A stretch of DNA of 64,000 nucleotides, from the IMG/VR virus record IMGVR_UViG_3300033121_001921, positions 1 to 64,000 of that record; one strand, given 5' to 3'. The notes below the pieces were generated by a model that worked only from the letters and a program-made list of their open reading frames with translations, ran no database searches and was not told where the DNA came from. The position numbers were made by a program, and so were the translations under genes. Shown in pieces: positions 19-52,852 of the stretch (position 1 is the stretch's first letter; every line of letters begins with the position of its first letter). This DNA comes from a virus (lineage: Duplodnaviria > Caudoviricetes).

Positions 19-582
19 TTATATAAATATATTAAAATAATTAGTTTTGATGTTAAAATAATCTATCACATCTTCTAAATTATCTTTCTTATTACAAACC
101 TTTACCCATGTCCTAGACATGTTTTTAACTACATCTGAATCATCTTTAGTCACATCAACCCTAAATATATCAACAACATCCTTTCTGAATAGATTTTTAT
201 TATTAAATGGCTTACTTAAATATGAATAAAGGTGGTGTCCCTTTATTGTAAATGATGAGGTAAAAAATCCATAATCTGTTTCTAAAGTTAATCCGATAGA
301 TGGTTTGGATGGATTTGAGTCCCAGACCCTGTTTAAAGACGGCTTATATCTCTTCATAAAGAGGTTGTCAAATTCTTTATTAACAGGACCACCACTCCAC
401 TCTTTATATTTTAATTTCATTTTTTCATACAGGGAAAGTAATTCTTGAATTTCATTTTCATTTTTGATTAATAAGCTTCGAAAATAAAAAGACAAAAATC
501 CATCGCATTGAGACATCTCCAATCTAGCTAGATCTATATCGTCATCATCTACGGATTCAAATTGTCTCCACCCCCTTATCAT
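19..582 (-). CDS. hypothetical protein, N-terminal 'QFES' motif family
   Basis: 187 aa ORF starting MIRGWRQFESV; ATATATA box just upstream on the minus strand. Confidence 0.7.
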   Translation of the reverse strand: MIRGWRQFESVDDDDIDLARLEMSQCDGFLSFYFRSLLIKNENEIQELLSLYEKMKLKYKEWSGGPVNKEFDNLFMKRYKPSLNRVWDSNPSKPSIGLTLETDYGFFTSSFTIKGHHLYSYLSKPFNNKNLFRKDVVDIFRVDVTKDDSDVVKNMSRTWVKVCNKKDNLEDVIDYFNIKTNYFNIFI

Positions 583-585
583 AAA

Positions 586-1032
586 TTATATATTAGTATT
601 CAGATTGGGATCTATATAAACGTTTGAATATTTAGAGATTAATTTAGAGTTGGATGACCCATCAATTATTACAGGGACAGAGTGTGATATTATCCATGGA
701 GCCCAAACATATCCAGCCTTAGTAAAATCCGAAACTAATTTGAAGGTTTTTTTCTCGAAATGATTTTTGATATCTACAGTACCTTCAGAAAAGTTATTAA
801 CTTCAATTTCATTTCCTATTGAGACAGAACTATCTATTCCCAGAATTTGATCAATCTTTTGATTTCGTTGAATTGTTTTTCTCCTAATTGATGCGGCCAA
901 TCCCTTAGTCTCGGGGGAAAATATGTCCAAAATAATTTCCTCATCGATGGATTTAGATAATTCATCAACGAGAGCTTTTTCTATTTCCTCGATTACATCT
1001 TTGTGAGGAAATGAATTCAAATTATTTGCCAT
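586..1032 (-). CDS. hypothetical protein with RxxKIDxIL motif
   Basis: 148 aa ORF in a tight minus-strand run; contains QRNQKIDQILG. Confidence 0.65.
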   Translation of the reverse strand: MANNLNSFPHKDVIEEIEKALVDELSKSIDEEIILDIFSPETKGLAASIRRKTIQRNQKIDQILGIDSSVSIGNEIEVNNFSEGTVDIKNHFEKKTFKLVSDFTKAGYVWAPWIISHSVPVIIDGSSNSKLISKYSNVYIDPNLNTNI

Positions 1033-1438
1033 TTAATAATGACATTTTTAATTTCCCGCCAAAGTTGGTAATATCTACCTCTGTTGTATAGACACCTGGA
1101 CTCACAAAGACTGTTGATGGATAAATCTTAAATGCCTTCCGTACTACGGACCCATTTGAATAAAAATCTATCTCAAGTTTAGTTTTAGTCACATCGACCA
1201 CAACGGCTTTACCACTTTTTAGTAAAATGTCTTTAACTAATTTAGATTTGTCTTCTCCTATAATTAAATTCAGCTTATGATTCCTCTTTTTTATAGTCCA
1301 CTTTTCCCATCTCTCATTTTTATTCAATTCCTTTGTCTCAGGTATAATCAAATCTAAGACAAAATCTTCTTTTAAGCTTTCCATTTGAAAAGAAGAATTC
1401 AATTTAATGTTTTCTAAGTCCTCAATAAATTCTGACAT
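1022..1438 (-). CDS. hypothetical protein
   Basis: ORF track gives 1022..1522; the ATG at 1438 (MSEFIEDL) avoids overlap with the upstream gene; contains KRNHKLNLII. Confidence 0.55.
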   Translation of the reverse strand: MSEFIEDLENIKLNSSFQMESLKEDFVLDLIIPETKELNKNERWEKWTIKKRNHKLNLIIGEDKSKLVKDILLKSGKAVVVDVTKTKLEIDFYSNGSVVRKAFKIYPSTVFVSPGVYTTEVDITNFGGKLKMSLLNGK

Positions 1439-1448
1439 ACTTTTACTT

Positions 1449-2829: not shown

Positions 2830-3993
2830 TTATTTGTGAAATAGCTTTAGAAACTCCTCTGTTTCCAATCTTTTGATTTCGTTGCCTAACTCCTTGCCCT
2901 TTATTCCTTGTTTCATTAGCTCTTCAGCAGAAACGCTTGGTAAGTATTTGATAAAGGCATCGAATAGATTTTTATTTAAAATATTGATCCTGACCCACTC
3001 TATTATCATTTCATTTGTTACATGGCACTTAATTTTATCTTTATACATCATAAAAGCATTCTCAGGCGAAAGATTAATGAGTCTTATTAAATGGCAAGCC
3101 TTTGATACAACCTCTGATTCAATTTTAAGATCCAGAACTAATTCCTTTTCTAATTTTTGAGGATCATTATCCCTTAGTACGCTCGCAATATAAATGGGTA
3201 GATAATTTGATTCTGGAATATTGAGGTTGAGTTTTAAATTTGGGAAAATCTCTTCAAATAAGTCTAAGTCTTTAATAATTTGAAGATAGTTCTTGAAGTT
3301 TTTCTTATATCCGTATGCCTTCTTTATTTCTTCCCAAATCCTTTCTCGAACTATTCTTTGCAGGGATTTTTTGGTCTTTTTGATATCTTCTGTAGTTTCC
3401 TCATCGATATTATATCCATATCTATAAGCAAATCTACAAACTCTCATAATACGAAGAGGATCCTCTTCGATTCTTTTTTCTGGATCACCAACCATCCTTA
3501 TAATCTTACTTTCTAGGTCCGATATTCCGCCTACTAAATCTATAATTTCTCTTTTATCCAAATCATAGAAAAGGGCGTTTATAGAAAGATCCCTTCTTTC
3601 CACATCTTTATCTATTGTAGTATATTCAACTTTGGGATTTCTTGATTTTCCATCATATGTATCTGATCTGAAAGTTGCAATTTCCATCCCCATGGGTTGG
3701 TCGTCAGTGTAGACAACAACTACTCCAAATGATTTTCCCTGGAGATTGGTCTTGTACTCTGCTCCAATTATTTTTAACACTTCATCAGGAAGAGCATCTG
3801 TACATAGATCAAAATCCTTTGGCTTATCACCTTTAAGAAAATCTCTAACAGCTCCACCCACTACATATAATTTCTTCCCCTTCTCAGAAAATATTTTTTG
3901 TAAATCTTTAACAGACTCAGGAATAATGGACCACATATCTGACTTAAGTGATTCTAAAAATAATTTATATTTAAGTAGTTTTCCAAATCCCAT
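2830..3993 (-). CDS. cca: CCA-adding tRNA nucleotidyltransferase / poly(A) polymerase family
   Basis: VGGAVRD, DFD, EIATFR, DVERRDLSINAL and EDPLRIMR class II nucleotidyltransferase motifs; likely start MGFGKLLKYKLFLES at 3993. Confidence 0.9.
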   Translation of the reverse strand: MGFGKLLKYKLFLESLKSDMWSIIPESVKDLQKIFSEKGKKLYVVGGAVRDFLKGDKPKDFDLCTDALPDEVLKIIGAEYKTNLQGKSFGVVVVYTDDQPMGMEIATFRSDTYDGKSRNPKVEYTTIDKDVERRDLSINALFYDLDKREIIDLVGGISDLESKIIRMVGDPEKRIEEDPLRIMRVCRFAYRYGYNIDEETTEDIKKTKKSLQRIVRERIWEEIKKAYGYKKNFKNYLQIIKDLDLFEEIFPNLKLNLNIPESNYLPIYIASVLRDNDPQKLEKELVLDLKIESEVVSKACHLIRLINLSPENAFMMYKDKIKCHVTNEMIIEWVRINILNKNLFDAFIKYLPSVSAEELMKQGIKGKELGNEIKRLETEEFLKLFHK

Positions 3994-4756
3994 CTTCTGA
4001 GTATAATAAATTTGTATTGATATTGCAAATTTTATAGTAGAGTTCATGAACCTCTTCAAGAGTCGTTTCTGAGAACGTCTTCATTAACGAATCTCTAATA
4101 GAATCAGAAATAGTTAAAATTTCATCTGTGTGTTCATCTTTATCTCCACCATATTGAGGAATTTTATTAAAAAGCATATTTTTTAAAGCTTTTTTGAATT
4201 CTACGGCTGATTTTCGATCTGAGAATTTACCAATAAACTCACCATGAAATGTATCAATATTAGAGATTGTTAGATCAGTAATTTTTATTTTGTCTCGTTC
4301 CTCTGACATTCCTATCTCTGGCTGTAAGGAAAATAAGTCAATTTTATTTTCATGTATGTGATCTTCAAGAAAATCTAGGGATTTTTTTTCTAATTTTGAT
4401 TTATCAATTTTAAAAATCATAGATAAGCACAGAGGTCTTGAACTTTCGAATGAAGCATCCTCAAAATATCCACGATCAAAATCAATGGATTCTAAGGTTC
4501 CTTGAATTGGAATTGGAGTTAAATTGTTATAGGTATGTTTACCAGGTCTAGCTCTTCCGTCGGCAGCTGGTCTGCCCGCAACGAATCCAATTCCAAATAT
4601 CCAAAGATTAAAAATGTGATCGGATAATTTTCTATTCATATGATTAGTTAATTTGGAAGCACGTGTATTATGACCTAATTGTCGTAATTTATCTGCGGCA
4701 GATTTATAAGTATCAGCCTTCAATTTCTCATTAAAGTGATTAAATTTAGATATCAT
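3971..4756 (-). CDS. hypothetical protein, N-terminal motif family
   Basis: 261 aa starting MISKFNHFNEK; divergent from 4774 across a shared ATATATA. Confidence 0.7.
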   Translation of the reverse strand: MISKFNHFNEKLKADTYKSAADKLRQLGHNTRASKLTNHMNRKLSDHIFNLWIFGIGFVAGRPAADGRARPGKHTYNNLTPIPIQGTLESIDFDRGYFEDASFESSRPLCLSMIFKIDKSKLEKKSLDFLEDHIHENKIDLFSLQPEIGMSEERDKIKITDLTISNIDTFHGEFIGKFSDRKSAVEFKKALKNMLFNKIPQYGGDKDEHTDEILTISDSIRDSLMKTFSETTLEEVHELYYKICNINTNLLYSEDGIWKTT

Positions 4757-4773
4757 ATAATTATATATAAAAT

Positions 4774-5163
4774 ATGAAATGGATCAAAAAATTTGAAAAT
4801 GCTGAAGAAGATCAAATTCCTAATAGATTCAATGAGGATAAGATAGATGAGTATTTTCAGGGATTGGTAGATGATTGGGATGTTGAAATAGAATATGATA
4901 GTGAAACATATGGTGATGCTTACTCAGATATTTTGGCTATTGAAGTAAAGATCGGAAGAAAATTATGGAGTAAATTTCCTAGATTACAGAGAATGCATAA
5001 AACTATGGAAAATGTATTAGAATATCACAATATGGACGTGTATTTTAGATTTATGTCTGATCTAAAAAAATGTATTGACCATCTAATATCATCTTCAGGA
5101 GATTATGAATGTACTCTCATAACTCAAAGTGAGTATTCAAAATTAACAATAATGATAGAATGA
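4774..5163 (+). CDS. MKWIKKFE-family paralog 1
   Basis: 129 aa; MKWIKKFEN...DEYFQGLVDDW...KKCIDHLISS. Confidence 0.8.
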   Translation: MKWIKKFENAEEDQIPNRFNEDKIDEYFQGLVDDWDVEIEYDSETYGDAYSDILAIEVKIGRKLWSKFPRLQRMHKTMENVLEYHNMDVYFRFMSDLKKCIDHLISSSGDYECTLITQSEYSKLTIMIE

Positions 5164-5540
5164 AGTGGATAAGAAAATTTGAATCTATTGAAACCGACTA
5201 CAAGGACTATTTCCAAGAATTAGTTGACAATTGGTTTGTTGGCCTTTCAGAAGAAGATGGAAAATTAGATTATTTTTTAATAGTTTCTACCGATAGTGAT
5301 AATGGATTTCCAACTATTCGAGAACTGAATTATTCATGGGTAACTGCACCAAAGTCAATTGCGGATCAATCTGTGATATCATTTAAATCAATTGATTTTG
5401 ATAAGTATTGTAAATTCATGGTGGACCTTCATAAGTGTTTAACTCACTTTATATCAGCCCATAGTGATCAATTATCATTTACTGAAATATTTCAAGATGT
5501 GAATTCTATAATTTGGATAAAATTTAAGAAATTAGGATGA
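5160..5540 (+). CDS. MKWIKKFE-family paralog 2
   Basis: 126 aa; MKWIRKFES...KDYFQELVDNW...HKCLTHFISA; ATGA overlap with paralog 1. Confidence 0.8.
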   Translation: MKWIRKFESIETDYKDYFQELVDNWFVGLSEEDGKLDYFLIVSTDSDNGFPTIRELNYSWVTAPKSIADQSVISFKSIDFDKYCKFMVDLHKCLTHFISAHSDQLSFTEIFQDVNSIIWIKFKKLG

Positions 5541-5956
5541 AGTGGATAAAGAAATTTGAAAATTCTTTACAAGATGATGTGGGTAAATATGAAGATTATT
5601 TTACAGATCTATCAGATAATTGGGGAATAAGCATTGAAAGTAAAAAAATCAAACGACTATTACAGATAATTCTGGTGATAAAAAACAAAGAATTGAAAGA
5701 GGGATTTCCTGCAATTGAACCACATATTCAGCAGGGAGATATGATGATAGTTGTTCATACTGAATATATTAATGGATTTGAGAAGTCTAGACTATATTTT
5801 GAATTTATGTCTGAGGTAATTAAATGTATAGATCATTTAACATCTTCTTGTGACGAAGCTGAATATGTAAGCATGTATGAGGAAAATAATAACTCATTTC
5901 CGGACTATACTGGATCATCCAAGCTAGTAATACAATTTAACATATATAATGATTAA
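5537..5956 (+). CDS. MKWIKKFE-family paralog 3
   Basis: 139 aa; MKWIKKFEN...EDYFTDLSDNW...IKCIDHLTSS; ATGA overlap with paralog 2. Confidence 0.8.
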   Translation: MKWIKKFENSLQDDVGKYEDYFTDLSDNWGISIESKKIKRLLQIILVIKNKELKEGFPAIEPHIQQGDMMIVVHTEYINGFEKSRLYFEFMSEVIKCIDHLTSSCDEAEYVSMYEENNNSFPDYTGSSKLVIQFNIYND

Positions 5957-6509
5957 GAGATTTGAAAATTTTGAATACCCTAGATTTTCAGAAAAAGATA
6001 TAATCAATGCTATAAAGAGAAAGGATTATATCTATGTGAAGAATATTAAAAATTTACCTGATCACAATGATGAAGATCCTGTTAGACCACTAGATATTGA
6101 TACGGATGGATTAATAACCATTGAAGTGGATGGAAAAGATTATGAAGTAGATCTTAAAAATGTTATAAGATTGGACAATAAAATAACAGAATCATATTAT
6201 CAAGATCTATCAGAATATAGATATGATAATAATTTCAAAGGACTTAATATAGGATGGTTGGATCGAGGCCATAATTATGAAAAAGGAGAAACTCCGGATT
6301 CGGTAGTCGAAAAATTGAAATCTGCAAAGTTCGAGAAAAGATACAAAGGATGGCATGTGTGTGAATTTTGTAAAAAATCCACTGGATATGGAATTGGATC
6401 TATAACAGGTAAGAGTGGAACTAAATATGTATTTCCTGATATGATAATACATTATATAGTTGATCATGGATATAAACCTCCCACAAAATTCATCAAAGAT
6501 GTATCATGA
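5949..6509 (+). CDS. two-module hypothetical protein; second module has CxxC/His residues (possible metal binding)
   Basis: MIKRFENF start; KITES linker, then YYQDLS..NIGWL..GWHVCEFC..PDMIIHYIVDHGYKPP. Confidence 0.75.
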   Translation: MIKRFENFEYPRFSEKDIINAIKRKDYIYVKNIKNLPDHNDEDPVRPLDIDTDGLITIEVDGKDYEVDLKNVIRLDNKITESYYQDLSEYRYDNNFKGLNIGWLDRGHNYEKGETPDSVVEKLKSAKFEKRYKGWHVCEFCKKSTGYGIGSITGKSGTKYVFPDMIIHYIVDHGYKPPTKFIKDVS

Positions 6510-7606
6510 TCAAATCATTTCATCATTTTGAGAATAATAATGAATCCAAAAGTAATAGGGAAGTAATATCATATCATCCTAAATTTCAGAATGATTATCC
6601 GAACGCAGCATTCATTCGTAGGTCACAGTTTAAAAACCATGATTTCCTAGATTATTTTTCAGAGATTATAGATGATAATCCAGAACTACAAATAGAGGTA
6701 ATACCAACATATGGTGATACTGGATTGTATATGATTGAAATAAAAGGCAAGCCAATAGATAACATTTCATCAATGGAATCTGTCATGGGGTGTGTTAATA
6801 GACTATGTGAAATGGAGAATCTCTCAATATTATCACTAGTTTGTCCAAATCAATCTAAGTTTTTCTTCGTTGTTGGGAGAGAGAAAATAACCGAGTCCTA
6901 TCAAGGAATATCTAAGCATCCAAAATTCCTGGCTGAATATGATCCAGATAATTTCATACCAATAAGAGGAGATCATAAGTTTAATGATTATATGTTAGAC
7001 ATATCAGATCAGGATCCGAGTCTAGATATTAAAATATTTAAATTTATTCGTCATAATGTAGGTGATAAAGAACGATATCTAATTCAATTCTTTGGATACA
7101 ATGTTGTAAAAAATCCATCTCCATTTGAAGAGGGATCAAATGTTCCAATAATATATGACTCAATAAATCTCCTCTGTGGTATGGAAAATCTGTCAATAGA
7201 GGCAATTGATTTTGTCCACAGTTCAAACAAATCATCGGTTCTATTCTTACTTAAAGAAGACAAGATCATAAATGAGTCCACAACAACAAAAGAAGATATT
7301 AAAGACTACTTTGTTGATTTTATGGACAAATTCGAATGCACTTTAACTGTTAATGAAGATGACTTTGATAGATATGAGGTGTGTATCGTAATGGATGAAA
7401 GATATTGGCGTAAGCATCAACACGATGTCAGCGCAAATCTACAATCTTGTATACATCATTTATTGGATTCAACAGAACTAGAGAGAAACGGATCCTATAA
7501 TACATTTGAAAGGATTGGTGGTCGAATGATAATGGTTATAAAGAAAAGATTTAAGGGGATATATAGTAAGGATTTAATGAAAATGAAATATTTGAAGAAC
7601 TTTTAA
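6506..7606 (+). CDS. multi-module (putative polyprotein) N-terminal motif family protein
   Basis: 366 aa; modules 1 and 2 are similar (HPKF...LCxMENLSI); linkers KITES and KIINES. Confidence 0.75.
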   Translation: MIKSFHHFENNNESKSNREVISYHPKFQNDYPNAAFIRRSQFKNHDFLDYFSEIIDDNPELQIEVIPTYGDTGLYMIEIKGKPIDNISSMESVMGCVNRLCEMENLSILSLVCPNQSKFFFVVGREKITESYQGISKHPKFLAEYDPDNFIPIRGDHKFNDYMLDISDQDPSLDIKIFKFIRHNVGDKERYLIQFFGYNVVKNPSPFEEGSNVPIIYDSINLLCGMENLSIEAIDFVHSSNKSSVLFLLKEDKIINESTTTKEDIKDYFVDFMDKFECTLTVNEDDFDRYEVCIVMDERYWRKHQHDVSANLQSCIHHLLDSTELERNGSYNTFERIGGRMIMVIKKRFKGIYSKDLMKMKYLKNF

Positions 7607-8636: not shown

Positions 8637-9152
8637 CTAATATTTTTTGAAAAGTAACACCATTTCATAAATGGATCCCTTCTTCATATTGTTTTTAGGA
8701 ATTCTATCTATGATGTCATCAAATATCTCATGAAAGTACACCCTGCCTTGTAACGCACTACCTACCATATAAATATATGACGATTCATTATCATGTGGAG
8801 ATTCATATACGAATCTAAATCCATCAGATTCGGCTCTTTTAATTAATCGGATCGTTTTAGTTATCAAATCTTGAAATGTTTTTGGGGATTCCCAAGAAAA
8901 GATTAAGTCAATTTCCCATCCATCATTGTATGAAATATCATATGAATTATATTTCCTCCCATTAAGAGAATAATGGACCACTCTTCTTGAATCATGAACA
9001 AATTTTTCACCAATTATGCTACTAATATACCAATATTCAGATTTGATAGAATCATCACCTATGTCAACAAAAATATCATGAAGAGTCATTAAATCTTCCA
9101 TTTTTTCAGAAGGAGCTTTGTCATTTCTAAAAGATTCAAATTTCTTTATCAT
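8637..9152 (-). CDS. MIKKFESF-family hypothetical protein
   Basis: 171 aa; MIKKFESF...LHDIFVDIGDD. Confidence 0.75.
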   Translation of the reverse strand: MIKKFESFRNDKAPSEKMEDLMTLHDIFVDIGDDSIKSEYWYISSIIGEKFVHDSRRVVHYSLNGRKYNSYDISYNDGWEIDLIFSWESPKTFQDLITKTIRLIKRAESDGFRFVYESPHDNESSYIYMVGSALQGRVYFHEIFDDIIDRIPKNNMKKGSIYEMVLLFKKY

Positions 9153-9832
9153 TATAGGGGAAATATTTCTAATTTTCCATACACGTTAGAATTTGGTAAT
9201 CGAATATCAACATCAAAACCAAGATTTTCCATCTTTCTAACTAGAATTGCCAATTCTGAATAGAAATCTACTTTATTGTGTATGCTATTAAATGTAAATT
9301 TATAATAGTTGTCGCTAAATCTTAAATTCGGACCATCCACAGTATCTGAAATATCTTGCAATATTTCTTCTAAGTATTCCATTGATAGATCATCAAATGC
9401 TGACGACTTCATTATAGATGTTATTGCAGCTTTTTCTACCTTATCTCCTTTAAGATAGTAAATATTTCTTTTGGCCGGTCCATCTTCTCTATGCACTTCT
9501 CCGTTTTTGTTGTAGTAGATTCTTCCACCATCGCCGTGTCTAGTTTGATCTGGAACAGAGAACGGTCCAGTTGCCAATTTAAAGAATCTTAGATATTTTT
9601 TGATATGAGAGAATGATGTAGTATCAGATTTTTCAGTTTGTAAATTCTCTATATGAACAGAATCATCTTTATCCATAATTCCCCATTTATAAATTTTAAA
9701 AGCTTCTCCTACAGAATAGTTAAAGTTATTGTTATTTGTATTTTTCACACATATATACACTGATTGGAGTGGTAGAGATTTATAAGTCACTGTTTTTGCC
9801 TCATTAAATGATGTAAGATGTTTGAGTGGCAT
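9152..9832 (-). CDS. hypothetical protein, N-terminal motif family
   Basis: 226 aa; MPLKHLTSFNEA; contains one HREDGPA motif. Confidence 0.7.
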   Translation of the reverse strand: MPLKHLTSFNEAKTVTYKSLPLQSVYICVKNTNNNNFNYSVGEAFKIYKWGIMDKDDSVHIENLQTEKSDTTSFSHIKKYLRFFKLATGPFSVPDQTRHGDGGRIYYNKNGEVHREDGPAKRNIYYLKGDKVEKAAITSIMKSSAFDDLSMEYLEEILQDISDTVDGPNLRFSDNYYKFTFNSIHNKVDFYSELAILVRKMENLGFDVDIRLPNSNVYGKLEIFPL

Positions 9833-9835: not shown

Positions 9836-11650
9836 TTATATATCAATTAGCTTTTCAAACTTTATTTTGCCACAATCAAATATCCGATGATATCCTAAAT
9901 CTTTCATATATGATGATTCGGTCTTATCTGTCTTTAGATTTGATTTTCTAAATCTTGATTTATGGACTCTCTTATTACCAACAATGTATTTATAGTCTGG
10001 TCTAGATTCTGATATTTTAGAAAACCCCATTGATTCATATACACCACCAACTGACCAATCTTTATCAGAATAGCTAATTATTCTAGTTGGGTTGTATTTA
10101 TCAATGAAAAATTTCAATAGTTTTGAAGCACCTCCAATAACATTTGTATTCAATTTATTACAAAATCTTGATAGATTCCATTCATTAGATGACATCTTCT
10201 TTCTGCCCTCAGAATGATCGAGTGTCATTATACCAATCAACTCTCCACGAAGATACAATCCTAATTTTACAATTGAATTTATACTTCCTTGTATATGATT
10301 TGTGTCTAGGAAATCCTTCACAATTGATACATCTGATATTTCAGATATTTCACAGTTCCTAGCTCCGATTTTTATTTCGTTTAACCCTATCCAATTTCTA
10401 ATTTGGCTCTTCAAGATTTCATTTTTAAACATCCAATCATCTTCCCAAATATGAATTATTCTAATTCCCCTGTCTTTAAAATAGTTTGTTTTGTCTAGAT
10501 GATAATTTCTATCTTTTATATCGTCAGAATGCCAATAAAGACCGTTAAATTCAAATCCTAATTTCAATTCGGGTAAATATATGTCGATTTCTTTTCTTTC
10601 ATCTTTATATGATTGTATAATTTCCCCCTTGTAAATACTTTGAATAAATTCGAACACTTCTTTTTCCTTTATGGAAACTGAATCTCCAATCGGATTGCAT
10701 ATTGTGCAGATTGGGATTAATGATCTTGTTCTATTATAATAATCAGATAAGCTAATATGAAATTGATGATTCTTATTCAAATCACATTGAAACTCAGATA
10801 TATTATTACCAATGTATTTTATGTAGTTAATATCTTGTGATATTTTGAAATTCTCTTTTCTAAAAGATTCTGATGATTGGTGAGATTCATTTCCGTATTT
10901 TTCAAGATTTGTTATTCTTGATTGTTCTCTAAACTCAGGAGTCATCATATAACTTGGAACGCCATATCTATCCAAATTAGTATTGATGGCTTTTTGCTTA
11001 ATCTCCGCATTTTGCATAGCATTCTCTACACCATATCTAGATAAGATGGTGGATTTGGACTTGGACTTAAATTCTTCTGTATTTAGATATGATTCATTAC
11101 CATATTTTTCAAGATTCGTTTCTTTAACTTTGGATCTTACAGAGTCTAACTTAGAAACATTATCAACTCCGTATTTCGATAAATTAGTTTGCCTTTGTTT
11201 TTCTTTTATGGTGCCTAATTTCAAGTGATGAGTCTCTCCATATTTTTTAAGACAGGTTGATTTTATCTTCTCCTTTACCGAATCTAGTTTCATGGGATGA
11301 TCAACTCCATATTTGTTCTTTATAGTTTCCTTTATTTTCTTCTTAACTTCTTCTGATTCGAATGGATTCTTAACTCCATATTTTGACATACATATGTCTT
11401 CCATTTTGAATTTCCAACATTTTGAACATGAATATTTGTCCATTTTAACATATTCTCTGTATTCCACTTTTGAAACATTTATTCTACAATAGTCACAGAG
11501 AACATCAACTTTCAATTTGGTCCCTTTTGGTAGATAGTTGGTTGGAATTGTGATTTCTTCTCCAATTTCTAATGATTTATTGAGAATTTTAGAATAATGA
11601 GCTTTATTTTTAGAAGCTATTTTAAGAGTTATTTCATTTGTGAGTATCAT
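9836..11650 (-). CDS. putative free-standing homing endonuclease (KYG repeats + Hef-like PD-(D/E)XK/Vsr-type domain)
   Basis: CxxC zinc motifs, many (K/R)YG-x-x-N repeats, then EIDIYLPELKLGFEFNGLYWH...IHIWEDDW...RFCNK...DCG. Confidence 0.8.
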   Translation of the reverse strand: MILTNEITLKIASKNKAHYSKILNKSLEIGEEITIPTNYLPKGTKLKVDVLCDYCRINVSKVEYREYVKMDKYSCSKCWKFKMEDICMSKYGVKNPFESEEVKKKIKETIKNKYGVDHPMKLDSVKEKIKSTCLKKYGETHHLKLGTIKEKQRQTNLSKYGVDNVSKLDSVRSKVKETNLEKYGNESYLNTEEFKSKSKSTILSRYGVENAMQNAEIKQKAINTNLDRYGVPSYMMTPEFREQSRITNLEKYGNESHQSSESFRKENFKISQDINYIKYIGNNISEFQCDLNKNHQFHISLSDYYNRTRSLIPICTICNPIGDSVSIKEKEVFEFIQSIYKGEIIQSYKDERKEIDIYLPELKLGFEFNGLYWHSDDIKDRNYHLDKTNYFKDRGIRIIHIWEDDWMFKNEILKSQIRNWIGLNEIKIGARNCEISEISDVSIVKDFLDTNHIQGSINSIVKLGLYLRGELIGIMTLDHSEGRKKMSSNEWNLSRFCNKLNTNVIGGASKLLKFFIDKYNPTRIISYSDKDWSVGGVYESMGFSKISESRPDYKYIVGNKRVHKSRFRKSNLKTDKTESSYMKDLGYHRIFDCGKIKFEKLIDI

Positions 11651-28579: not shown

Positions 28580-30193
<1,614 letters not shown>

Positions 30194-30204
30194 GTTTTTT
30201 TTAA

Positions 30205-30477
30205 TTAAATTATTGCGAATATATCAGACTCACGTAGAATTATAAGATCCTCACCCTCAACACTTATTTCACTACCGGAATATTTACCATATAAGACGTT
30301 ATCTCCTGTTTTTACTGTCATTGGTTCATCTTTTTTCCCATTCCCAACTGCGAGAACACTCCCCTTTAGAGGTTTCTCCTTGGCTGTATCAGGAATAATC
30401 AATCCGCCTTTTGTAACGGATTCTTGTTCATGTGGCTTTATCACCACTCTATCATGTAAAGGTTTAATATTGCTCAT
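30205..30477 (-). CDS. groES: co-chaperonin GroES
   Basis: [28 protein letters not shown] and RESDI motifs. Confidence 0.97.
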
Positions 30478-41151: not shown

Positions 41152-41207
41152 CTACAAATTTAATCATTTTTTCACAAATTACAAAATGCGTAATTTATAT
41201 ATAAATT

Positions 41208-41786: not shown

Positions 41787-42153
41787 GAGTTATGCAAATT
41801 AGCATTTCCGCATATTGTCTTTTAATTCTTAGTCCATCATATTCAATCTTTGATACCGATTCATAAATTAATTTATAAATCTTAGATTCGTCTTCTAAAA
41901 ACTTATAATACTCTTCAAGATCTTCGGGATTTCTAACATCTTTACTAACTTCTTTACCTAGGGTCACAACAACAAGAAATTGATTACTCATTCTATGATT
42001 ATCAAAGTATCCGAAAAGGCCTTGATACACTTTATAAATTTCTTTAGAGTAGTAAAATTTGATTTGATTTTCATCAGAAATATTTAAAAACGCAAGCTTT
42101 ATATCATCCAATCTATCATCAATTGAAGATTCATTGAATCTACTAATTTTCAT
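41779..42153 (-). CDS. N-terminal motif family protein
   Basis: MKISRFNES...DDIKLAFLNISDE. Confidence 0.7.
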   Translation of the reverse strand: MKISRFNESSIDDRLDDIKLAFLNISDENQIKFYYSKEIYKVYQGLFGYFDNHRMSNQFLVVVTLGKEVSKDVRNPEDLEEYYKFLEDESKIYKLIYESVSKIEYDGLRIKRQYAEMLICITLT

Positions 42154-42169: not shown

Positions 42170-42580
42170 ATGAACAAGAGTAAATATTTTATGTCAATTC
42201 ATGATAAATTTGGCAACTATATGAAGGTTTGTGATAATATGGAGTTAATAACTGGATACACAAAATCAGAAATTATTGGGCGATCAGCCTATGAATTCTT
42301 TAATCCAAAATGTATCCCAGATATCGTGACTTCTCATTTAAGTCCAATACTGACAAGCATAAGCTATCAAATTGTTAAAAAAGATGGGACATTTCTTTAT
42401 GTAAATACCTTATCATTCAAGACAGTTGATGACGGCACTAAAAATGATTATATTTGTTGTGTAACTAAGAAAATGAATTTCTTAGAGAGATTTCTTTATA
42501 GAGTAAGCAGATATAAAAGGAAACTAAACTCAATTATTACTCTAAAAATCAGAAAGGCTCGTGATCAAAAAAACATATAA
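42170..42580 (+). CDS. stand-alone PAS-domain protein
   Basis: ITGYTKSEIIGRSAYEFFNP and YQIVKKDGTFLYV PAS/PAC signature. Confidence 0.75.
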   Translation: MNKSKYFMSIHDKFGNYMKVCDNMELITGYTKSEIIGRSAYEFFNPKCIPDIVTSHLSPILTSISYQIVKKDGTFLYVNTLSFKTVDDGTKNDYICCVTKKMNFLERFLYRVSRYKRKLNSIITLKIRKARDQKNI

Positions 42581-43070
42581 TGATCAAGATATTGGAAATT
42601 TTCTAGATTGTTTTCTAGAGATTGAGGATAGTGGATTTAAAATAGATTTAGAAATTGACATATTGATGGATGCTTATCCTTATGGGTTTCTTTACAATCC
42701 ACATATATGGAATAGTGCAAAGCGACAATGGAATACTCCATGGGAAGGAGATCCATCAAAAATGCCCAGTATGGATGCAACTAGAGGTGGTATAATTACA
42801 AATTATCATTCCGACCTTATAAGAGTAAAAATCACAGGATCAAAGGAATTATTAATGGGAATAGATTTTTATGAAAACGTGATAAATATTCATAGGCCAC
42901 TTAGAAGTGATTCTGTAAATCAAATATCACTTAAAAACCTCGAAAATATAAGATCCAATATACTTATGAGAAAAATTAAGAATATTTCTGGATTCTACTT
43001 ATATAACTCTCAATATTATTCTCTGACGAATGGGAAAGGATCTATAATTTTGGAATTCATACATCAATAA
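42561..43070 (+). CDS. hypothetical protein, paralog of 48579..49088
   Basis: shared DCFLE..D.GFKI, DAYPYGFLYNP.IWN.AKRQWN.PW.GDPSK. Confidence 0.75.
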   Translation: MIKKTYNDQDIGNFLDCFLEIEDSGFKIDLEIDILMDAYPYGFLYNPHIWNSAKRQWNTPWEGDPSKMPSMDATRGGIITNYHSDLIRVKITGSKELLMGIDFYENVINIHRPLRSDSVNQISLKNLENIRSNILMRKIKNISGFYLYNSQYYSLTNGKGSIILEFIHQ

Positions 43071-44968: not shown

Positions 44969-45886
44969 ATGTTAATTAGCGAGTCTGTATTTACTCCAAC
45001 GAACAATAGAAATTATAAAAAATTCAAATCACTAGGATATGAATTTGATATTGGTGATGTGATATTGGTAAGTATCAATCATCTTTCTACAGGATCAAAA
45101 TCTATTGTTGTTGTACAGTGTGATGTTTGTGGGTCTAAAATGGATTTAAAATATTCCATGTATGTAAAGAATACTAAAAAGTATGGCATTTATACATGTA
45201 ATGGTCGATGCTCCAAAATAAAATTTAAAAAAACTTAGAATTTCGGTTCAGAGACTCCGATGCAAAATCCCGATATAAGAAATAAAGTTGGTGAGTATTT
45301 CCTATCTAAATATGGAGTTAGACACCCATCAATGCTTTTAGAATTTGAAAAGAAAAAACAAGACACAAATATAGAAAGATACGGAGTTCCTCACCAAATG
45401 CATATATCAGATAATATCCTAAAAATAAAAAGCTCCAAGTTAGAAAAATACGGGAATGAAAATTATAATAATATCAAAAAGAATAAAGAGACTTGCTTGG
45501 AACGATATGGTGTTAATAATGTAATGAAAGTTGAAGAGATATTTAACAGGCAAAAATCATCTAGCTTTAGTAAAAACGAAATAAATAATTTAATATATCA
45601 AAGTACTTATGAGCTAGACTTCATAAAAAAATGTCTGAGTATGAACATTAGAATAGAAAACGGGCCATCTATTGATTACGCATTTGATGGCAAAGATCAT
45701 AAATATTATTCAGATTTCTACTTGCCAGAATATAATTTAGTGTGTGAGATCAAGTCTAATTATATATACAACATGGAAGTTGATATAAATGAACGTAAAA
45801 AAGCATCTTCGATAAAAAATGGATATAATTTCTTATTTATAATTGATAAGAACTATACTGAATTTGAAAAAATATTGATTAGATAA
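44969..45886 (+). pseudogene. KYG-repeat PD-(D/E)XK (TnsA-like) endonuclease split by an in-frame TAG
   Basis: ORFs 44969..45238 and 45260..45886 are in one frame (KFKKT*NFGSETPMQNP); C-terminal YQSTYELDFI..YYSDFY..EIKS. Confidence 0.7.
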
Positions 45887-48582
45887 TGGTTTGCCCGTTG
45901 TACAAAAGATTAAAGGAAAATGGAACAAGTTTTTATGTATTTCCGGGTAGTGCTGAAGATATTTCAGCCAGTCACCAGAATCAGAATTATAAAATGTACT
46001 TTTCTAAGTACACTTTAGTCAACTTTCCAAAAGTAAACTCTGTTGATCCTGGTGGTACACAATCAGAATATATTACATTTAATTTTGGTACTTTCAGCAC
46101 CATATCTCCCGGTGCCCCTGATAATTTCAGTGATCAAATAGTTGAATCTCTTAGAAATTATGTCGCTAATCATGAGACATCAATAAGAGGATCTAGATTA
46201 AACAATACAGATTTTTACTATGACCCAACTGCATTAGAAACAACTTCAGAAAAGATATTTTTTAAATGGTGTAAGAAAATAGGAATAATAGGATTTGAAC
46301 CAGCTATTCCCCAAGATGAATATTTTGACAATTTGGATGAATTTGCTAGAAAAAATTCTAATGATGATTCTTATTTTAAAGAATATCTCTGGAAAGAAAG
46401 AGAGATATCCGAATATGCAATTATTGATATAGATGCAACATCGAATTTGACTCTAACGGTTAATGGGGTGTCAAATATCAGAGAAGGTGATATTATAGAA
46501 ATCTATGGCGATTCTGATTTAACGACAACTATAGGAGAATACGTCAGAGTAAGAGTATTGGGAGTGACATTCGATGTTGATGACAATCATGTTATTGAAC
46601 TATCATTGACGCCGGGTGGATCCTATGTCGCCACAGGAACAAAAATAAGATTATACTATCATAGACTAATCCAATATATTGGGGAAGTCAATGGTGTTTC
46701 AAACGTTCAACAATCTAACAAATCATATACCGAAGTTTATGCGCATGTTCCAGATCACACTGGACAAACACCTGATATTCTTTTCAGAACAATCGCAGAT
46801 TCAAATTATAAACCAGGATTAATATTTCCGATAAGACCAAATCAATATCAACCAGAAATTGTTGGAGCTGAGTTATTTTCATCACCAATTGTAAATGATC
46901 CACTATCCTATCCTGGGTCCTATTATGGTCAATTTGATACTCCAGATTTCACATACGAAGTTGCAAATGGAGATTCGTTCAGAAGATCTGGAAGCTACTT
47001 TGGTGTATCAGGTGATATTAACGAACCTATAGTTGATGGATCTTTGATAGACGGAATAACAATAGATTTTGATACATCACACTATGTTAAGATGAATATC
47101 GAAGATAGAGTTATTTCAACATTTGATCAATTCAGCGCATTGGAAGTTAATAACGATCCTCCACAAGATTTTGATTTTAATGCAATTCTGTGGTACTATA
47201 TGGTTGAGGACTCTAATGGAAATAAGAGAACAAACTTGTATGGAATCTCCTTTTTGGATAATCCAGAAAACAATCCCGTTGTGGACGATATTGGACTAAG
47301 ATTTCCTCTATATAAAAAATTAGTCACAAATGGCCAACAAGATGGAACATCTTATGCCTTTGCTATTAATTTGAATTTCAATATTGTAAGTGATAACATT
47401 ATCGAGGCCTATAATCCTGACGCCGTTAATTCACTATTCAGTATGAACTTATTCAACAGCGCTATGAGCAAATTGGCGTCAGCGAATGACAGCTTTCTGA
47501 ACGTTATAAGTGAGCATGTTACTCTAAAAACCGAAATAAATGGATTAAAACAGCTTCTATATTCTCAAACTGACTTTGCTGCAATAAATTCGAGACTCTC
47601 AACTCTGGATAGCTTGCTAAGATTATATAGCACAAGTCAAATGGTTTCATCAGATACAATTGAAGTTGAATTGGATGATAGTGTTTCTCCACCTGTAATA
47701 AAGCATAACTCTATTGATAGGTCATATATTTCAACCGAAATATATAAGACAAGTCAGATGTTTTCATCTGCTGGAGTAGTTCCTGTTCAAATAAATCCAC
47801 CTCAATATAAAGATTTCCTAATTCAGATCGAGAACAATGATGAGGTAGAATTTGAACTTGATGGCAATCTAAAGATAGTCTTGAACTCAGATCTTGAAAT
47901 AAGACAAAGTATAGATATTTTGATATCTGGATCTGATCTATCTTCGCAAAATAAAAAACTTGATATTTACATAACTACCGTCAATCCAAATACAAACATT
48001 GTAGAGGAAGATGACGATGAGGTAACTACAACAAGTTCTGACGGATCAACAGAATTCTCTGATGTTCAACCTGTCGAAACACTTTTAATTGGGGATGTTG
48101 ATCTGCCTGTGTTCTATAATTTGAATACATCTCAACCCAACTCTGCCAAGTCATGGAAGAGTTTTAATTTTGATATAGACTTCGATGAAGATATAATAAT
48201 GCTCCCCAATAACACTTTACAAATATCCCTAGTAGGGAATCAATTTATAATTGCAAACTCAATCAAAGAGGGGGATGCTTTAGTACTAAATAATTTATTT
48301 ATTGGCACTTCATCAGTTTTTGATTTCTCTGGCCAATATTTTGTGACTTCTGTGTCTGTCAATCAAATAACACTTGATATATCTATCAATGAGGAATTTG
48401 TCTCTTATGGAACGGGACTTCTCCCTCTAACACTCCATAGTGCATCTTCGACTGTACTGAGCAATAGTCCATTCATATCTCTAAACAAAGGAATTTGGGT
48501 AAGAGTTACAAGAATTAGCTCTTCTGAACAAGTCTCCATAGATCAAAAATATTTAATTGATGTTAGAGATCTGCAATACTAA
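45886..48582 (+). CDS. large acidic protein, probably virion structural
   Basis: 898 aa, beta-rich composition; the structural role is inferred from size, composition and context only. Confidence 0.5.
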   Translation: MVCPLYKRLKENGTSFYVFPGSAEDISASHQNQNYKMYFSKYTLVNFPKVNSVDPGGTQSEYITFNFGTFSTISPGAPDNFSDQIVESLRNYVANHETSIRGSRLNNTDFYYDPTALETTSEKIFFKWCKKIGIIGFEPAIPQDEYFDNLDEFARKNSNDDSYFKEYLWKEREISEYAIIDIDATSNLTLTVNGVSNIREGDIIEIYGDSDLTTTIGEYVRVRVLGVTFDVDDNHVIELSLTPGGSYVATGTKIRLYYHRLIQYIGEVNGVSNVQQSNKSYTEVYAHVPDHTGQTPDILFRTIADSNYKPGLIFPIRPNQYQPEIVGAELFSSPIVNDPLSYPGSYYGQFDTPDFTYEVANGDSFRRSGSYFGVSGDINEPIVDGSLIDGITIDFDTSHYVKMNIEDRVISTFDQFSALEVNNDPPQDFDFNAILWYYMVEDSNGNKRTNLYGISFLDNPENNPVVDDIGLRFPLYKKLVTNGQQDGTSYAFAINLNFNIVSDNIIEAYNPDAVNSLFSMNLFNSAMSKLASANDSFLNVISEHVTLKTEINGLKQLLYSQTDFAAINSRLSTLDSLLRLYSTSQMVSSDTIEVELDDSVSPPVIKHNSIDRSYISTEIYKTSQMFSSAGVVPVQINPPQYKDFLIQIENNDEVEFELDGNLKIVLNSDLEIRQSIDILISGSDLSSQNKKLDIYITTVNPNTNIVEEDDDEVTTTSSDGSTEFSDVQPVETLLIGDVDLPVFYNLNTSQPNSAKSWKSFNFDIDFDEDIIMLPNNTLQISLVGNQFIIANSIKEGDALVLNNLFIGTSSVFDFSGQYFVTSVSVNQITLDISINEEFVSYGTGLLPLTLHSASSTVLSNSPFISLNKGIWVRVTRISSSEQVSIDQKYLIDVRDLQY

Positions 48583-49088
48583 CTGTAGATAAATTCTAAA
48601 CTAATACATCCGATATTGTCCACTAAGTCATTATAATAGCAATGGTGAAGGTAAAATCCAGTTAAATTATAGATCTTTTTCAATAGTGGATTTTTTCTAA
48701 TAATTTCTAAATGTTGATATGACTCAGTGTCAACGAATGAGTTGCCAGTTACTGATTTGCACAAATGCAATAAATATTTATAGAAATTTATTCCCTTTAT
48801 AAGGGATTCTGATCCAGATATATCAATTCTGATTAAATCAGGATTTGAATGTGTAATTACACCACCTCTTATGGTTGGGATCTTTGATGGATCACCTAGC
48901 CAAGGATTGTTCCATTGCCTTTTTGCCTCATTCCATATCTCTGGATTATATAAGAATCCATAAGGATATGCATCGATTGTTAAATTTGTTTTTAACCCTA
49001 TTTTGAATCCGATATCTTCAAATTCAAGAAAGCAGTCTAAAACAGTTCCAATATCTTGATTCGTATATGATCCAAATTTTCTTATCAC
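48579..49088 (-). CDS. hypothetical protein, paralog of 42561..43070
   Basis: MIRKFGSY start; same conserved block as its paralog. Confidence 0.75.
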   Translation of the reverse strand: MIRKFGSYTNQDIGTVLDCFLEFEDIGFKIGLKTNLTIDAYPYGFLYNPEIWNEAKRQWNNPWLGDPSKIPTIRGGVITHSNPDLIRIDISGSESLIKGINFYKYLLHLCKSVTGNSFVDTESYQHLEIIRKNPLLKKIYNLTGFYLHHCYYNDLVDNIGCISLEFIYS

Positions 49089-50078: not shown

Positions 50079-50291
50079 ATGGAGTTTTTATTAGAGTATT
50101 CGTCTTATTATAAAGTTGGGGACAAGGTTCTAATAGAGTATTGGTACAATGATGACATAACAGTTGTTAAAATAGATGAGATCATTGGTAGGAAATACAA
50201 AGTTACGCACAATATTCCAGAATCTAAAATTTTTAATGCTCCAGATGAATTACTTAAATCTTCAGACATAATTGATTATTTTAAGCCCTAG
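50079..50291 (+). CDS. small SH3/KOW-like protein
   Basis: MEFLLEYSSY...YKVGDKVLIEYW; ATATATA 4 nt upstream. Confidence 0.65.
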   Translation: MEFLLEYSSYYKVGDKVLIEYWYNDDITVVKIDEIIGRKYKVTHNIPESKIFNAPDELLKSSDIIDYFKP

Positions 50292-50311
50292 TGTTATTTA
50301 ACACTACATTT

Positions 50312-51514
50312 TCAATGTACAGGTTGTTTATTATCCATCCCACAATATGTGGAAATCAAGTATCCGTAATAGCCAACGTCCTGAGGATCATTCATATCGA
50401 GATATTGTGTGGCTAGAATAGATAGTTCGTCACGGGTTAGGTTGTGATCTAAAAACTTAACTTTCAACATATCATATTGTCCTGATTCTTGTTGATCCAT
50501 AAAATCATCAGATTCTCTCCAATTCTTAACCTCTGTCAAATTAGCACCTGATTCTATATAGACTTTGGAGTCACGGTTCTTTCTTTTCCATCGATTCTTA
50601 CGGCGACGGCGACTCTTTTTACTAGAATGTGTATATTCAACGATGCCATTGGTACTCATGTGATCCATGTCATATGCATCATTATCCACATAAGTTCTCT
50701 TTTGTGTATATGTAGGATAATTCGAATATGAATATGATTTGTATTCAGTTTTGGTCTTATCTCTTTCAGTTGGAAGACTTTCCCAATCAATCAATATTAC
50801 AGCATCTGCAAGATTCGCAAGGTGGGTAAGATCCTGCCTTTCATTGGTTGTATGTTCATTATAATATCCAACAGATATATTAGTGCATTCGGATATCACT
50901 CTTACAAATTCAGCTGAATCTGTATAGATCCCTGTGTCATCCTTTCGATAAGAGAGATTCAATTTATTGAATTCGGAGGCAAGTGATTCTGCAAATTTAT
51001 CGGAGCAGGTTCTGGTAGAGGATTGGTGAGTAATTACAGAGTTTGTGCCTCGTCTATCAAAAGACACCATTCTATGATATGGCGAAAATTCATCTATAAG
51101 ATTAGATGCAGCCGTTGATCCCAAACAACCAACCTCTTCACCATAGAAAAAGTAATAAGTCCCTGGAATATTATGCTTCATCATCCACAAAAGGATTGTG
51201 ACTCCAGCTTTATCATCTGCTCCCAAAATCGATGTCCCATCAGTCTTAACTATTTCATTACCACAATCATCATCGAAGACGTGGCTTACATCAACTTGAG
51301 CTTGACAAGCAGTGTCCAAATGAGATGTAAAAATGGTTTTAGAATTGCCAACTTGATAATAAAAGTTTCCAAACTGATCTTCTTTCAAATCTTTTGGAAA
51401 AAGTCCACACTGAATCATATCGTCTACTAGACCATCCTCAAATCCAAATGGATAGGTCTTGGTAGTCAATTTCAAAAAAGTTGATTTAATCCACTCAAAC
51501 GTATCTATCTTCAC
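50312..51514 (-). CDS. M28-family zinc peptidase-like protein
   Basis: SHLDT, GADDKAG, GEEVG, DRRG and GYYNEHT metal-binding motifs. Confidence 0.85.
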   Translation of the reverse strand: MKIDTFEWIKSTFLKLTTKTYPFGFEDGLVDDMIQCGLFPKDLKEDQFGNFYYQVGNSKTIFTSHLDTACQAQVDVSHVFDDDCGNEIVKTDGTSILGADDKAGVTILLWMMKHNIPGTYYFFYGEEVGCLGSTAASNLIDEFSPYHRMVSFDRRGTNSVITHQSSTRTCSDKFAESLASEFNKLNLSYRKDDTGIYTDSAEFVRVISECTNISVGYYNEHTTNERQDLTHLANLADAVILIDWESLPTERDKTKTEYKSYSYSNYPTYTQKRTYVDNDAYDMDHMSTNGIVEYTHSSKKSRRRRKNRWKRKNRDSKVYIESGANLTEVKNWRESDDFMDQQESGQYDMLKVKFLDHNLTRDELSILATQYLDMNDPQDVGYYGYLISTYCGMDNKQPVH

Positions 51515-51583
51515 GTATACAAAATTTTTACAAATATACGAAATTTTTCCAAATTTGGTGTATTAATATATAATATATACCCA

Positions 51584-52852
51584 ATGATCAAAAGATATCA
51601 TCAATTTCTTTTAGAATCCATAGAAATCAATGAAATAAGGGATTATTTTTCAGATCTAATAGATAGTGGATTTGGAATAGATATCATCGATAATATTTAC
51701 TATGATACAACTTATCAACATCTATCTAAGGAATATGGTATAACCATGGTAGATTTTGATAGACATGAATCATATCAATTAATGTTTTCTGGGTCTAAAT
51801 ATAGAGAGGGTATTATTATAAAGCTGTTGGTAAGTGGTGGCGCCACATTTGAGGACGTAACAATTGATTTTCAAAATTCAATTTCACAACTGGATTCAAT
51901 TGGATTTAATCTCTTAAAAATAAGAGCTATTTCTGACAATGGCAATGGATGGGATGATTTGAATGTAAATCATATTAGTATGAAAGATAGCTCAATTGTA
52001 TTAGAAGGAATGAATTTTGAATATAATCAGTGTGTTCTGGAGTTGCAATTCTATATTGACGATGAAAAGAAATTTAATGATATCGATGTGGCTAGATACT
52101 ATGGGTGGACAGGTTATGAAAAAGATGAGTCTGGAAATATATCCATAAAATTGGAAACTTCGGATGTTATTTCTACTTTTGGATATAAAAGCGAATACTA
52201 CCAAATATTACTCGAATATGAGGATATATTTGATAGATATAGGAATCATGGGAATTACGTACCGCAAGTTAAAGAGTTTGGTCAAAGATATTTTGGCATT
52301 GATAAAGAAAATATGATAAAACTCCTCACCTATATTATTGATTCATCAAATTGGAATGTATTTTTGGATAAATATGTGGAAAACGAAGAATTAAAAACTC
52401 TATCCAAGGATAATTTCCTAATCGAGATAACAAGCTATAAGCAAGAGCGCAATCTGTGCTCAGTATTAGAAAATTGCAATGCAGATTATAGCGATATAAT
52501 ATCTGATATAAGATGGATAATTGGGGATTTTGCATCAGATGCTCATGCTGGAAAAAATCTGAAAGAAATCCAAAATTCATTTGATGATATGTTAAGTAAG
52601 CATTGCTCTTACACAGTAGATGGTGAAGATATGAAAATTCGATTCAGTAATGATTGGATTAGGGATGTACAAATGTATATTCTAAATGAATCTTTAGAAT
52701 CAATTTTCTCAAACTGGGTCACAGAAGAAATACCCAGATCGGAGAAAGATCTTAAGCCTAGACTATCTGATTGGGGTGATATTGATAAGAAAGAACTCAA
52801 TATCGAAATATCAGGTATTGTTGATAACTATAAGAGAAAAATCACATCATAG
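51584..52852 (+). CDS. N-terminal motif family protein (MIKRYHQFLLES)
   Basis: 422 aa; EIRDYFSDLIDSG segment; ATATATA upstream. Confidence 0.75.
   Translation: MIKRYHQFLLESIEINEIRDYFSDLIDSGFGIDIIDNIYYDTTYQHLSKEYGITMVDFDRHESYQLMFSGSKYREGIIIKLLVSGGATFEDVTIDFQNSISQLDSIGFNLLKIRAISDNGNGWDDLNVNHISMKDSSIVLEGMNFEYNQCVLELQFYIDDEKKFNDIDVARYYGWTGYEKDESGNISIKLETSDVISTFGYKSEYYQILLEYEDIFDRYRNHGNYVPQVKEFGQRYFGIDKENMIKLLTYIIDSSNWNVFLDKYVENEELKTLSKDNFLIEITSYKQERNLCSVLENCNADYSDIISDIRWIIGDFASDAHAGKNLKEIQNSFDDMLSKHCSYTVDGEDMKIRFSNDWIRDVQMYILNESLESIFSNWVTEEIPRSEKDLKPRLSDWGDIDKKELNIEISGIVDNYKRKITS

Follow-up and report, generated by a model that had tools for sequence, protein, structure and literature searches.

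The internal proteins IPII and IPIII of phage T4 begin with a capsid-targeting sequence (CTS), MKTYQEFIAE, and IPI is a third internal protein provided with a CTS. In the polymorphic internal-protein loci of T-even phages and in the MuF-type toxins of temperate phages, the N-terminal part, responsible for loading, is conserved and is joined to C-terminal bodies that vary. The T4 CTS is an N-terminal propeptide of 10-20 residues that is removed by the gp21 prohead protease and is sufficient to package foreign proteins (PMC5694885, PMC3012670). The giant phages phiKZ and SPN3US have about 50 head proteins, a gp21-related protease that cuts after Glu, and paralogues with conserved N-termini; about 8 of their proteins are processed, at A/S/G-x-E sites, and the propeptides are mostly longer than 100 residues (PMC5694885). 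This study deals with a short peptide, hereafter the tag, that is found at the N-terminus of numerous open reading frames (ORFs) in a stretch of viral DNA, the window, which covers positions 1-64,000 of a virus contig of 80.5 kb and 31% GC from IMG/VR (record IMGVR_UViG_3300033121_001921). A preliminary description of this DNA had proposed the tag as an address for loading proteins into the phage head.

The tag is a real and apparently undescribed N-terminal peptide; neither MKHLKKF nor MIKKFESF was found in the literature searched. We give a probability of roughly 40% to the reading that it is this clade's version of the T4 CTS, with targeting to the prohead and cleavage after Glu. Like the CTS of IPII and IPIII, it comprises about 10 residues at the extreme N-terminus of small, otherwise unrelated proteins, its start is basic and then aromatic, and it ends in Glu plus a small residue; in its long forms even the spacing is the same (K-x-Y-x-x-F-[IL]-x-E). 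The number of copies differs: the T4 CTS, confirmed in this study on ipII and ipIII as the preliminary description had it, is present there in two exact copies, whereas about 20 tags were counted per 80 kb here and 90-150 in each complete relative. The two T4 copies are DNA-identical, that is, copied as DNA, whereas the megaphage tag is diversified at synonymous sites. Moreover, the commonest form in the window, M-I-K-K-F-E-S, is shorter than the T4 CTS and has no I/L at the third place ahead of the Glu. T4 internal proteins are basic, whereas the tagged megaphage proteins are acidic.

In contrast to the long propeptides of phiKZ and SPN3US, the part shared here measures only 7-12 residues, with the bodies beginning within about 20 residues, which sets the tag apart from that class; no homology of the tagged proteins to the processed proteins of phiKZ/SPN3US was found. 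A likeness to the polymorphic internal-protein and MuF-type loci is seen in the tagged gene at 5949-6509, whose N-terminal module occurs on three different bodies. Unlike MuF-type toxins, however, the tagged proteins have no MuF domain, and their conserved part is usually just the short tag.

Occurrence of the tag on the contig and in related megaphages

The contig, with a completeness of 28% as estimated by CheckV, is a fragment of a Mahaphage-type megaphage. The best counterparts of its topoisomerase II, its GroEL and a protein of 1646 aa are encoded, at 42-63% identity, by LR756502, LR745206, LR756504 and LR756501, which are metagenomic megaphages of 634-735 kb, and 45 of the 122 contig ORFs match LR756502 at E values below 1e-5. 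The Mahaphage clade takes in every genome above 634 kb of the source paper, and Bacteroidetes are the predicted hosts of the five genomes exceeding that size (PMC7162821). Closer relatives with a head module were also searched for, the best being only 57-58% identical in topoisomerase II. For the comparisons reported below, LR756502 was used in its entirety and LR756504 up to 400 kb, with T4 as control.

On the contig, the tag takes the form M-x(0-3)-[IL]-K-[KR]-F-(N)-E-[SN]. It was found on 15 ORFs of the window, on 2 more in a weaker form, and on 5 ORFs beyond the window (contig positions 66739, 70392, 71271, 71833 and 72713); approximately one gene in six on the piece begins with the shared peptide. 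All 15 N-termini listed in the preliminary description, where a position denotes the low coordinate of an ORF on either strand, are indeed present at the ORFs concerned. The core [KR]F[END][ESN] lies within the first 12 residues of 11 of the 122 contig ORFs, against the 0.4-0.5 expected from its frequency in the interior of the same proteins (Poisson P about 1e-11). This excess over interiors is 20-fold on the contig and 9-fold in LR756502, whereas T4 showed none in the same pipeline (2 seen vs 1.2 expected). A longer core gave 8 N-terminal and no interior copies on the contig, and 39 N-terminal and 5 interior copies in LR756502; two of the latter five are miscalled starts, since both come after an internal Met. 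An acidic helix had been noticed downstream of many tags; the pattern [DE]-x-F-x-[DE]-L-x-D-[DE] was present in 9 of 22 tagged ORFs compared with 1 of 100 untagged ones, with a P value that is inflated because the pattern was derived from the same data.

Of the 976 ORFs in LR756502, 94 start with M-[KRN]-[HYWF]-[LIVM]-x-x-[FYW] and about 45 more with looser variants, the consensus being M-K-H-L-K-K-[YF]-N-E-S or M-K-H-L-K-x-Y-K-I-F-E-S. The fixed pattern M-K-x-[LI]-K-x-[FY]-x-E had no matches in LR756504 or LR756501; de novo inspection of LR756504 revealed a longer form, preferentially M-K-Y-L-K-x-[FY]-x-x-F-[LIV]-N-E-S. In IMG/VR, an exact-pattern scan picked up 35 tag-bearing stretches, most of which include more than one or two tagged ORFs, on AT-rich contigs of 9-483 kb, and the exact start M-I-K-K-F-E-S-[FY] was encountered on only one other IMG/VR contig. 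Synonymous codons in the 94 LR756502 tags track genome usage (31 AAG and 29 AAA for Lys at position 5, 21 GAA and 17 GAG for Glu at position 9, Leu spread over 5 codons), and replacements stay within a residue class (K/R, F/Y, L/I). Thus, the tag is kept at the peptide level and is not an RNA or DNA signal. In this respect, as in its restriction to the N-terminus and its placement on fast-changing small proteins of unrelated sequence, the tag behaves as had been described. The wording "about 20 unrelated ORFs" was slightly too strong: the tag was found as claimed, but five of these ORFs fall into two small groups of paralogues, and a second short helix motif is common to nine.

About half of the tagged genes of LR756502 are located in its first 100 kb (10-100 kb), in runs of up to 17 consecutive genes, and this part of the genome looks like a hyperplastic region.

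Head protease, scaffold and the end motif of the tag

A gp21-type prohead protease, which capsid loading by this route had been expected to involve, was absent from the contig and present in every complete relative examined. It is encoded by LR756502, LR756504, LR756501 and LR756500 and by four near-complete IMG/VR genomes. The relatives carry homologues of gp20, gp21 and gp23, and the head module of LR756502 comprises the portal, the protease, the major head protein (the gp23 homologue) and an M20-type peptidase. The N-domain of the protease matches gp21 of T4-like phages (752 phage records). At 630-810 aa in the relatives (225272-227371 in LR756502), the protease is fused to a tail in eight genomes, and most of these tails contain 8-14 repeats of 13-14 residues carrying Y-[IL]-A-E, which holds the same I-A-E as the end of the T4 CTS. 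The repeats are near-identical (N-I-x-Y-S-E-Y-[IL]-A-E-N-L-D-K) and are followed by an acidic low-complexity stretch; in LR756500 they are degenerate. The whole looks like a protease and a scaffold in one self-chopping chain.

This protease/scaffold fusion is rich in the end motif of the tag, a feature that is new in this analysis. Sites of the type hydrophobic-N-E-[SA] are placed at its domain borders in all eight genomes, and one homologous border reads L-N-E-S, L-N-E-N, L-F-E-S or V-F-E-N, which is the same variation as in the tags. The fusion is the sole protein among 596 in LR756504 with more than one interior [LIVFYM]NE[SA] (4 copies, P 2e-5); in LR756502 five proteins are tied at two interior copies, and the fusion has the lowest P of these. 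In the T4 control, gp22, gp21 and gp23 took the three highest ranks among 267 proteins for the end motif of the CTS, and hence the approach recovers known gp21 substrates. The major head protein of LR756502 contains I-N-E|N at residues 41-44, which is only a candidate cut site; homology to the gp23 cut of T4 (L-T-E|A, residue 65) was rejected, as the two do not align.

Further features were recorded for the tags and for the proteins that bear them. The long-form pattern K-x-Y-x-x-F-[IL]-x-E followed by a small residue occurs twice on the contig (51584, and 71271 beyond the window), 20 times in LR756502 and 10 times in LR756504, with fewer than 0.3 expected in each, and one IMG/VR contig has the start MKSYKQFITES. 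Four of the 15 window tags fit hydrophobic-x-E at their end (F-N-E, L-L-E). Tagged proteins have a median length of about 160 aa and are more acidic than the others (P 0.004-0.005); a hydrophobic 19-mer is present in 1 of 94 tagged vs 127 of 882 untagged proteins (P 3e-5), the untagged set including some spurious ORFs.

From these features we infer docking, cleavage, packaging and any role of the cargo along the following lines. The tag would be a protein-level address that works only at a free N-terminus. The newly made protein would be docked on the scaffold core of the assembling prohead by the basic-aromatic start of the tag, M-K-x-[LI]-K-x-[FY], of which M-I-K-K-F is the short form on this contig. 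The gp21-type protease would then cut after Glu (…E|S), and the soluble body would stay in the head and be ejected with the DNA. It is conceivable, if doubtful, that Mahaphage-type megaphages load at least a tenth of their proteome by means of a diversified descendant of the T4 CTS and inject it with the DNA, amounting to 100+ mostly orphan soluble proteins; enzymes in such cargo would include the CCA-adding enzyme, a lysozyme, a SET-domain protein and an HNH nuclease. On this reading, no virus of bacteria would be known to have a larger ready-made set of effectors, and the 13-residue repeats of the protease fusion would form the docking lattice.

Several observations weigh against capsid loading. 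No head protease and no other head gene was found on the 80.5-kb contig, which is 28% complete, and the protease is connected with the tag through relatives whose shared proteins are only 42-57% identical. Nine of the 15 window tags end in [KRTQH]-F-E-[SN], without a hydrophobic P3; K-K-F-E-S, the ending of most window tags, lacks the hydrophobic residue that T4-type sites have at the third place ahead of the cut. In LR756502 the end motif is modestly enriched in the fusion, whose 2 copies are equalled in four other proteins, and its depletion from the bodies of tagged proteins is statistically marginal (0 seen vs 2.5 expected, P 0.08). The ATATATA box that precedes many tagged genes is unusable as a marker of late genes. 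T4 itself encodes gp61.1 (54 aa, beside the primase gene; NC_000866 18966-19130, minus strand), listed only as a hypothetical protein, which starts with MKTFKEFIKED, close to the CTS of ipII and ipIII; such a start alone is therefore no proof of packaging. The CCA-adding enzyme is not an obvious virion protein and, to our knowledge, a head cargo of 10-15% of the genes, or 100+ proteins, exceeds that of any studied phage.

Should capsid loading hold true, the injected proteins of an entire clade of uncultivated giant phages could be identified by a simple rule at the sequence level. Injected proteins act before any phage gene is expressed, and those marked by the tag, most of them orphans, would thus be prime candidates for counter-defence. 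The T4 CTS would be widened from a three-protein curiosity to a general and evolvable sorting system, and new short tags would become available for packaging foreign proteins into phage capsids.

Competing explanations

The tag may instead address a partner other than the capsid, acting as a timing degron for a protease of host or phage, as a docking peptide for the phage chaperonin or as a sorting signal for an intracellular phage compartment. Its modular, N-terminus-specific and peptide-level character fits such a role equally well, and the phage encodes GroEL and GroES (the latter recognized by eye) as well as several peptidases. In addition, the cytoplasm is the expected site of action of tagged enzymes like the CCA-adding one, and the very high number of tagged genes is easier to accommodate with a cytoplasmic sorting or turnover signal. 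Nevertheless, we regard a partner of this kind as rather unlikely: no known degron or chaperonin signal is similar, and both the end motif at the borders of the protease/scaffold fusion and the long-form match to the T4 CTS would be left unexplained. With another partner, the tag would still represent an undescribed sorting signal, present on 10-15% of the genes of the largest known phages.

The bodies behind the tag bear on a second alternative, namely that the tagged proteins form one large and very diverged multigene family in which modules have been shuffled, the tag being its conserved N-terminal element, kept for folding or oligomerization and carrying no address. Deprived of their tags, the bodies show no relation by BLAST or profile beyond the trio at 4774, 5160 and 5537 and the pair at 42561 and 48579, and a profile built from the trio gathered no further members, staying at 3. 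Pfam and PHROGs searches with ten tagged window proteins returned only DUF7919 and a weak zinc ribbon, and any Pfam domain was detected in just 7 of 105 tagged proteins. Eight Pfam families were found on tagged proteins (DUF7919, phage lysozyme, SET, two HNH families, DUF6576, GCN5L1 and a carbohydrate-binding module), and tag status was concordant in 44 of 45 orthologue pairs between the contig and LR756502. By these sequence comparisons, the tag is modular, bolted onto separate bodies. A single family would account for the tandem arrays (4774-5956 here, runs of 10-17 tagged genes in LR756502), for the 35 N-terminal residues being the best conserved in the family of 3971-4756, and for the short second helix motif common to 9 of the 22 tagged ORFs, a subset for which it leaves distant kinship open. 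It is made improbable by the presence of the tag on unrelated known folds (DUF7919, lysozyme, SET, HNH and the CCA-adding enzyme) and by the scarcity of interior copies of the longer core given above. Furthermore, AF2 leaves the tag unpacked against the body, and its confidence is low for the tag and for a K-I-T-E-S linker, as for flexible segments.

A third explanation is linked to translation and starts from the ATATATA box. The box is located 0-7 nt ahead of the ATG in 10 of the 15 tagged window ORFs, and the remaining five overlap or abut an upstream gene on the same strand. It is not specific to the tag: in the window it also precedes the gene for the large subunit of topoisomerase II, HNH-type genes and the gene for the 1646-aa protein, and in LR756502 it is present upstream of 24% of genes vs 1.9% of random windows. 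ATATATA is a general promoter-like box; a role as late promoter was rejected, as in LR756502 it precedes head genes but also topoisomerase II and a ribonucleotide-reductase-like gene. Only close spacing is enriched with the tag, a box at 4-9 nt being found in 49% of tagged vs 10% of untagged LR756502 genes (P 2e-18). This keeps alive the idea that leaderless or nearly leaderless mRNAs behind ATATATA constrain the first codons, or that promoter and first codons together form a gene-capturing recombination cassette. About half of the "untagged" near-box genes of LR756502 prove to be tag variants, Shine-Dalgarno sequences are lacking and the second codon is biased to AAA, all of which would suit a translational constraint. 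However, third codon positions and the first positions of Leu codons are free, with the amino-acid class maintained, the starts of about 45 near-box genes are of a quite different kind, coupled genes without a box of their own are tagged all the same, and there is no known RNA-level reason for an F/Y at a fixed position and an E-S end; we consider a translational origin improbable.

Boxes of the form (A)ATATATA fall into two spacing classes before starts, one at 4-9 nt and the other at 18-38 nt (head genes, topoisomerase II); examples in the window are at 4760-4770, 41190-41205 and 51565-51580. Genes of the 4-9 nt class possibly give rise to leaderless transcripts, and the lack of Shine-Dalgarno sequences is in line with a Bacteroidota host.

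Lastly, K and I dominate positions 2-5 in all contig ORFs, and AT-rich genomes often have M-K-K and M-I-K starts, but a compositional accident of such a genome, whose genes frequently continue from the start codon with Lys, Ile, Phe, Asn and Glu codons, is refuted by the counts, that is, by the 20-fold and 9-fold excesses over interiors on the contig and in LR756502 and by the lack of an excess in T4.

Individual tagged genes and neighbouring features

The first tagged ORF of the window (19-582, minus strand; 187 aa, MIRGWRQFES) has a box 4 nt upstream and no Pfam or PHROG match. The tRNA nucleotidyltransferase or CCA-adding enzyme (2830-3993, minus strand; PHROG 2244, E 5e-64) has, if started at the ATG at 3993, a 19-residue tag-like extension (…LLKYKLFLES…). 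An internal Met is located at the usual start of the enzyme core, 19 codons past the tag-like start, and the gene might give both a tagged and an untagged product. The orthologue in LR756502 begins MIITKYAKFLES, with the alignment running from there, and the tag-like extensions of both enzymes end in F-L-E-S. The adjacent ORF (3971-4756, minus strand; 261 aa, MISKFNHFNE) belongs to a family of 8 in public data that is best conserved over its N-terminal 35 residues. Its AF2 model (pTM 0.74, with a pLDDT of 34 for residues 1-12) gave no fold match in a Foldseek search against the PDB.

On the plus strand, three tandem paralogues follow: 4774-5163 (129 aa, MKWIKKFEN), with a box 6 nt upstream, 5160-5540 (126 aa, MKWIRKFES) and 5537-5956 (139 aa, MKWIKKFEN), the last two with starts that overlap the preceding gene by 4 nt. 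The tagged fusion protein encoded next to them (5949-6509, plus strand; 186 aa) matches PF25535 (DUF7919) in Pfam with an E value of 9e-29. It is laid out as tag plus a 70-aa N-module (residues 1-76), a K-I-T-E-S linker (77-81) and the DUF7919 domain (83-185), and a DUF7919 protein of Streptomyces begins exactly past the linker point; the AF2 pLDDT of the linker region (73-91) is below 50. The N-module occurs on two other bodies in public data and as a standalone 79-aa protein in LR756502. The ORF at 6506-7606 (plus strand; 366 aa, MIKSFHHFEN) has three modules, with K-I-T-E-S ahead of the second and K-I-I-N-E-S ahead of the third, both of them tag-like.

Two coupled genes on the minus strand encode tagged proteins of 226 aa (9152-9832; start MPLKHLTSFNEA, box 4 nt upstream) and 171 aa (8637-9152; MIKKFESF). 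The short ORF at 28294-28515 (minus strand; 73 aa, MEFLRTFESF), with a box 6 nt upstream, forms the sole pair discordant in tag status, as its relative in LR756502 has no tag. A box 4 nt upstream also precedes 33262-33627 (plus strand; 121 aa, MIKKFEEF), and the start of 40367-40564 (minus strand; 65 aa, MIIKKFESY) overlaps the gene at 40561-41151. The ORFs 41208-41786 (plus strand; 192 aa, MNHIKKFESW) and 41779-42153 (minus strand; 124 aa, MKISRFNES) each have a box 6 nt upstream, and the LR756502 orthologue of the former is also tagged, in a different form of the tag. The two weak tags belong to 169-aa paralogues that are 53% identical and have GTG starts, 42561-43070 (plus strand, MIKKTYNDQD) and 48579-49088 (minus strand, MIRKFGSY). 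The ORF at 51584-52852 (plus strand; 422 aa), with a box 4 nt upstream, starts MIKRYHQFLLES, and its tag is of the long, T4-CTS-like form (K-x-Y-x-x-F-L-x-E-S).

The window also encodes an untagged peptidase related to peptidase T of the M20 type (50312-51514, minus strand; PHROG 4191, with sequence matches to PDB entries 3rza and 3gb0). The homologue in LR756502 (229975-231351) is part of the head module, directly after the gene for the major head protein, and further ORFs of LR756502 and LR756504 with N-terminal similarity to the peptidase look paralogous. This enzyme might serve to clear peptides freed by head maturation. The phage-encoded GroEL (28580-30477, minus strand) is 63% identical to that of LR756501, and a small ORF beside its gene is GroES-like by eye.

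Finally, five paralogous large genes, one of them split, were found at 9836-11650 (minus strand), 13420-15231 (plus strand), 24643-26361 (minus strand), 57947-59029 (plus strand) and 44969-45886 (plus strand). The copy at 9836-11650, the only one scanned against Pfam, contains DUF7487 together with weak Mom-like and restriction-endonuclease-like parts. One of the five is placed between the genes for both topoisomerase II subunits, and as a group they behave like mobile homing-type genes.

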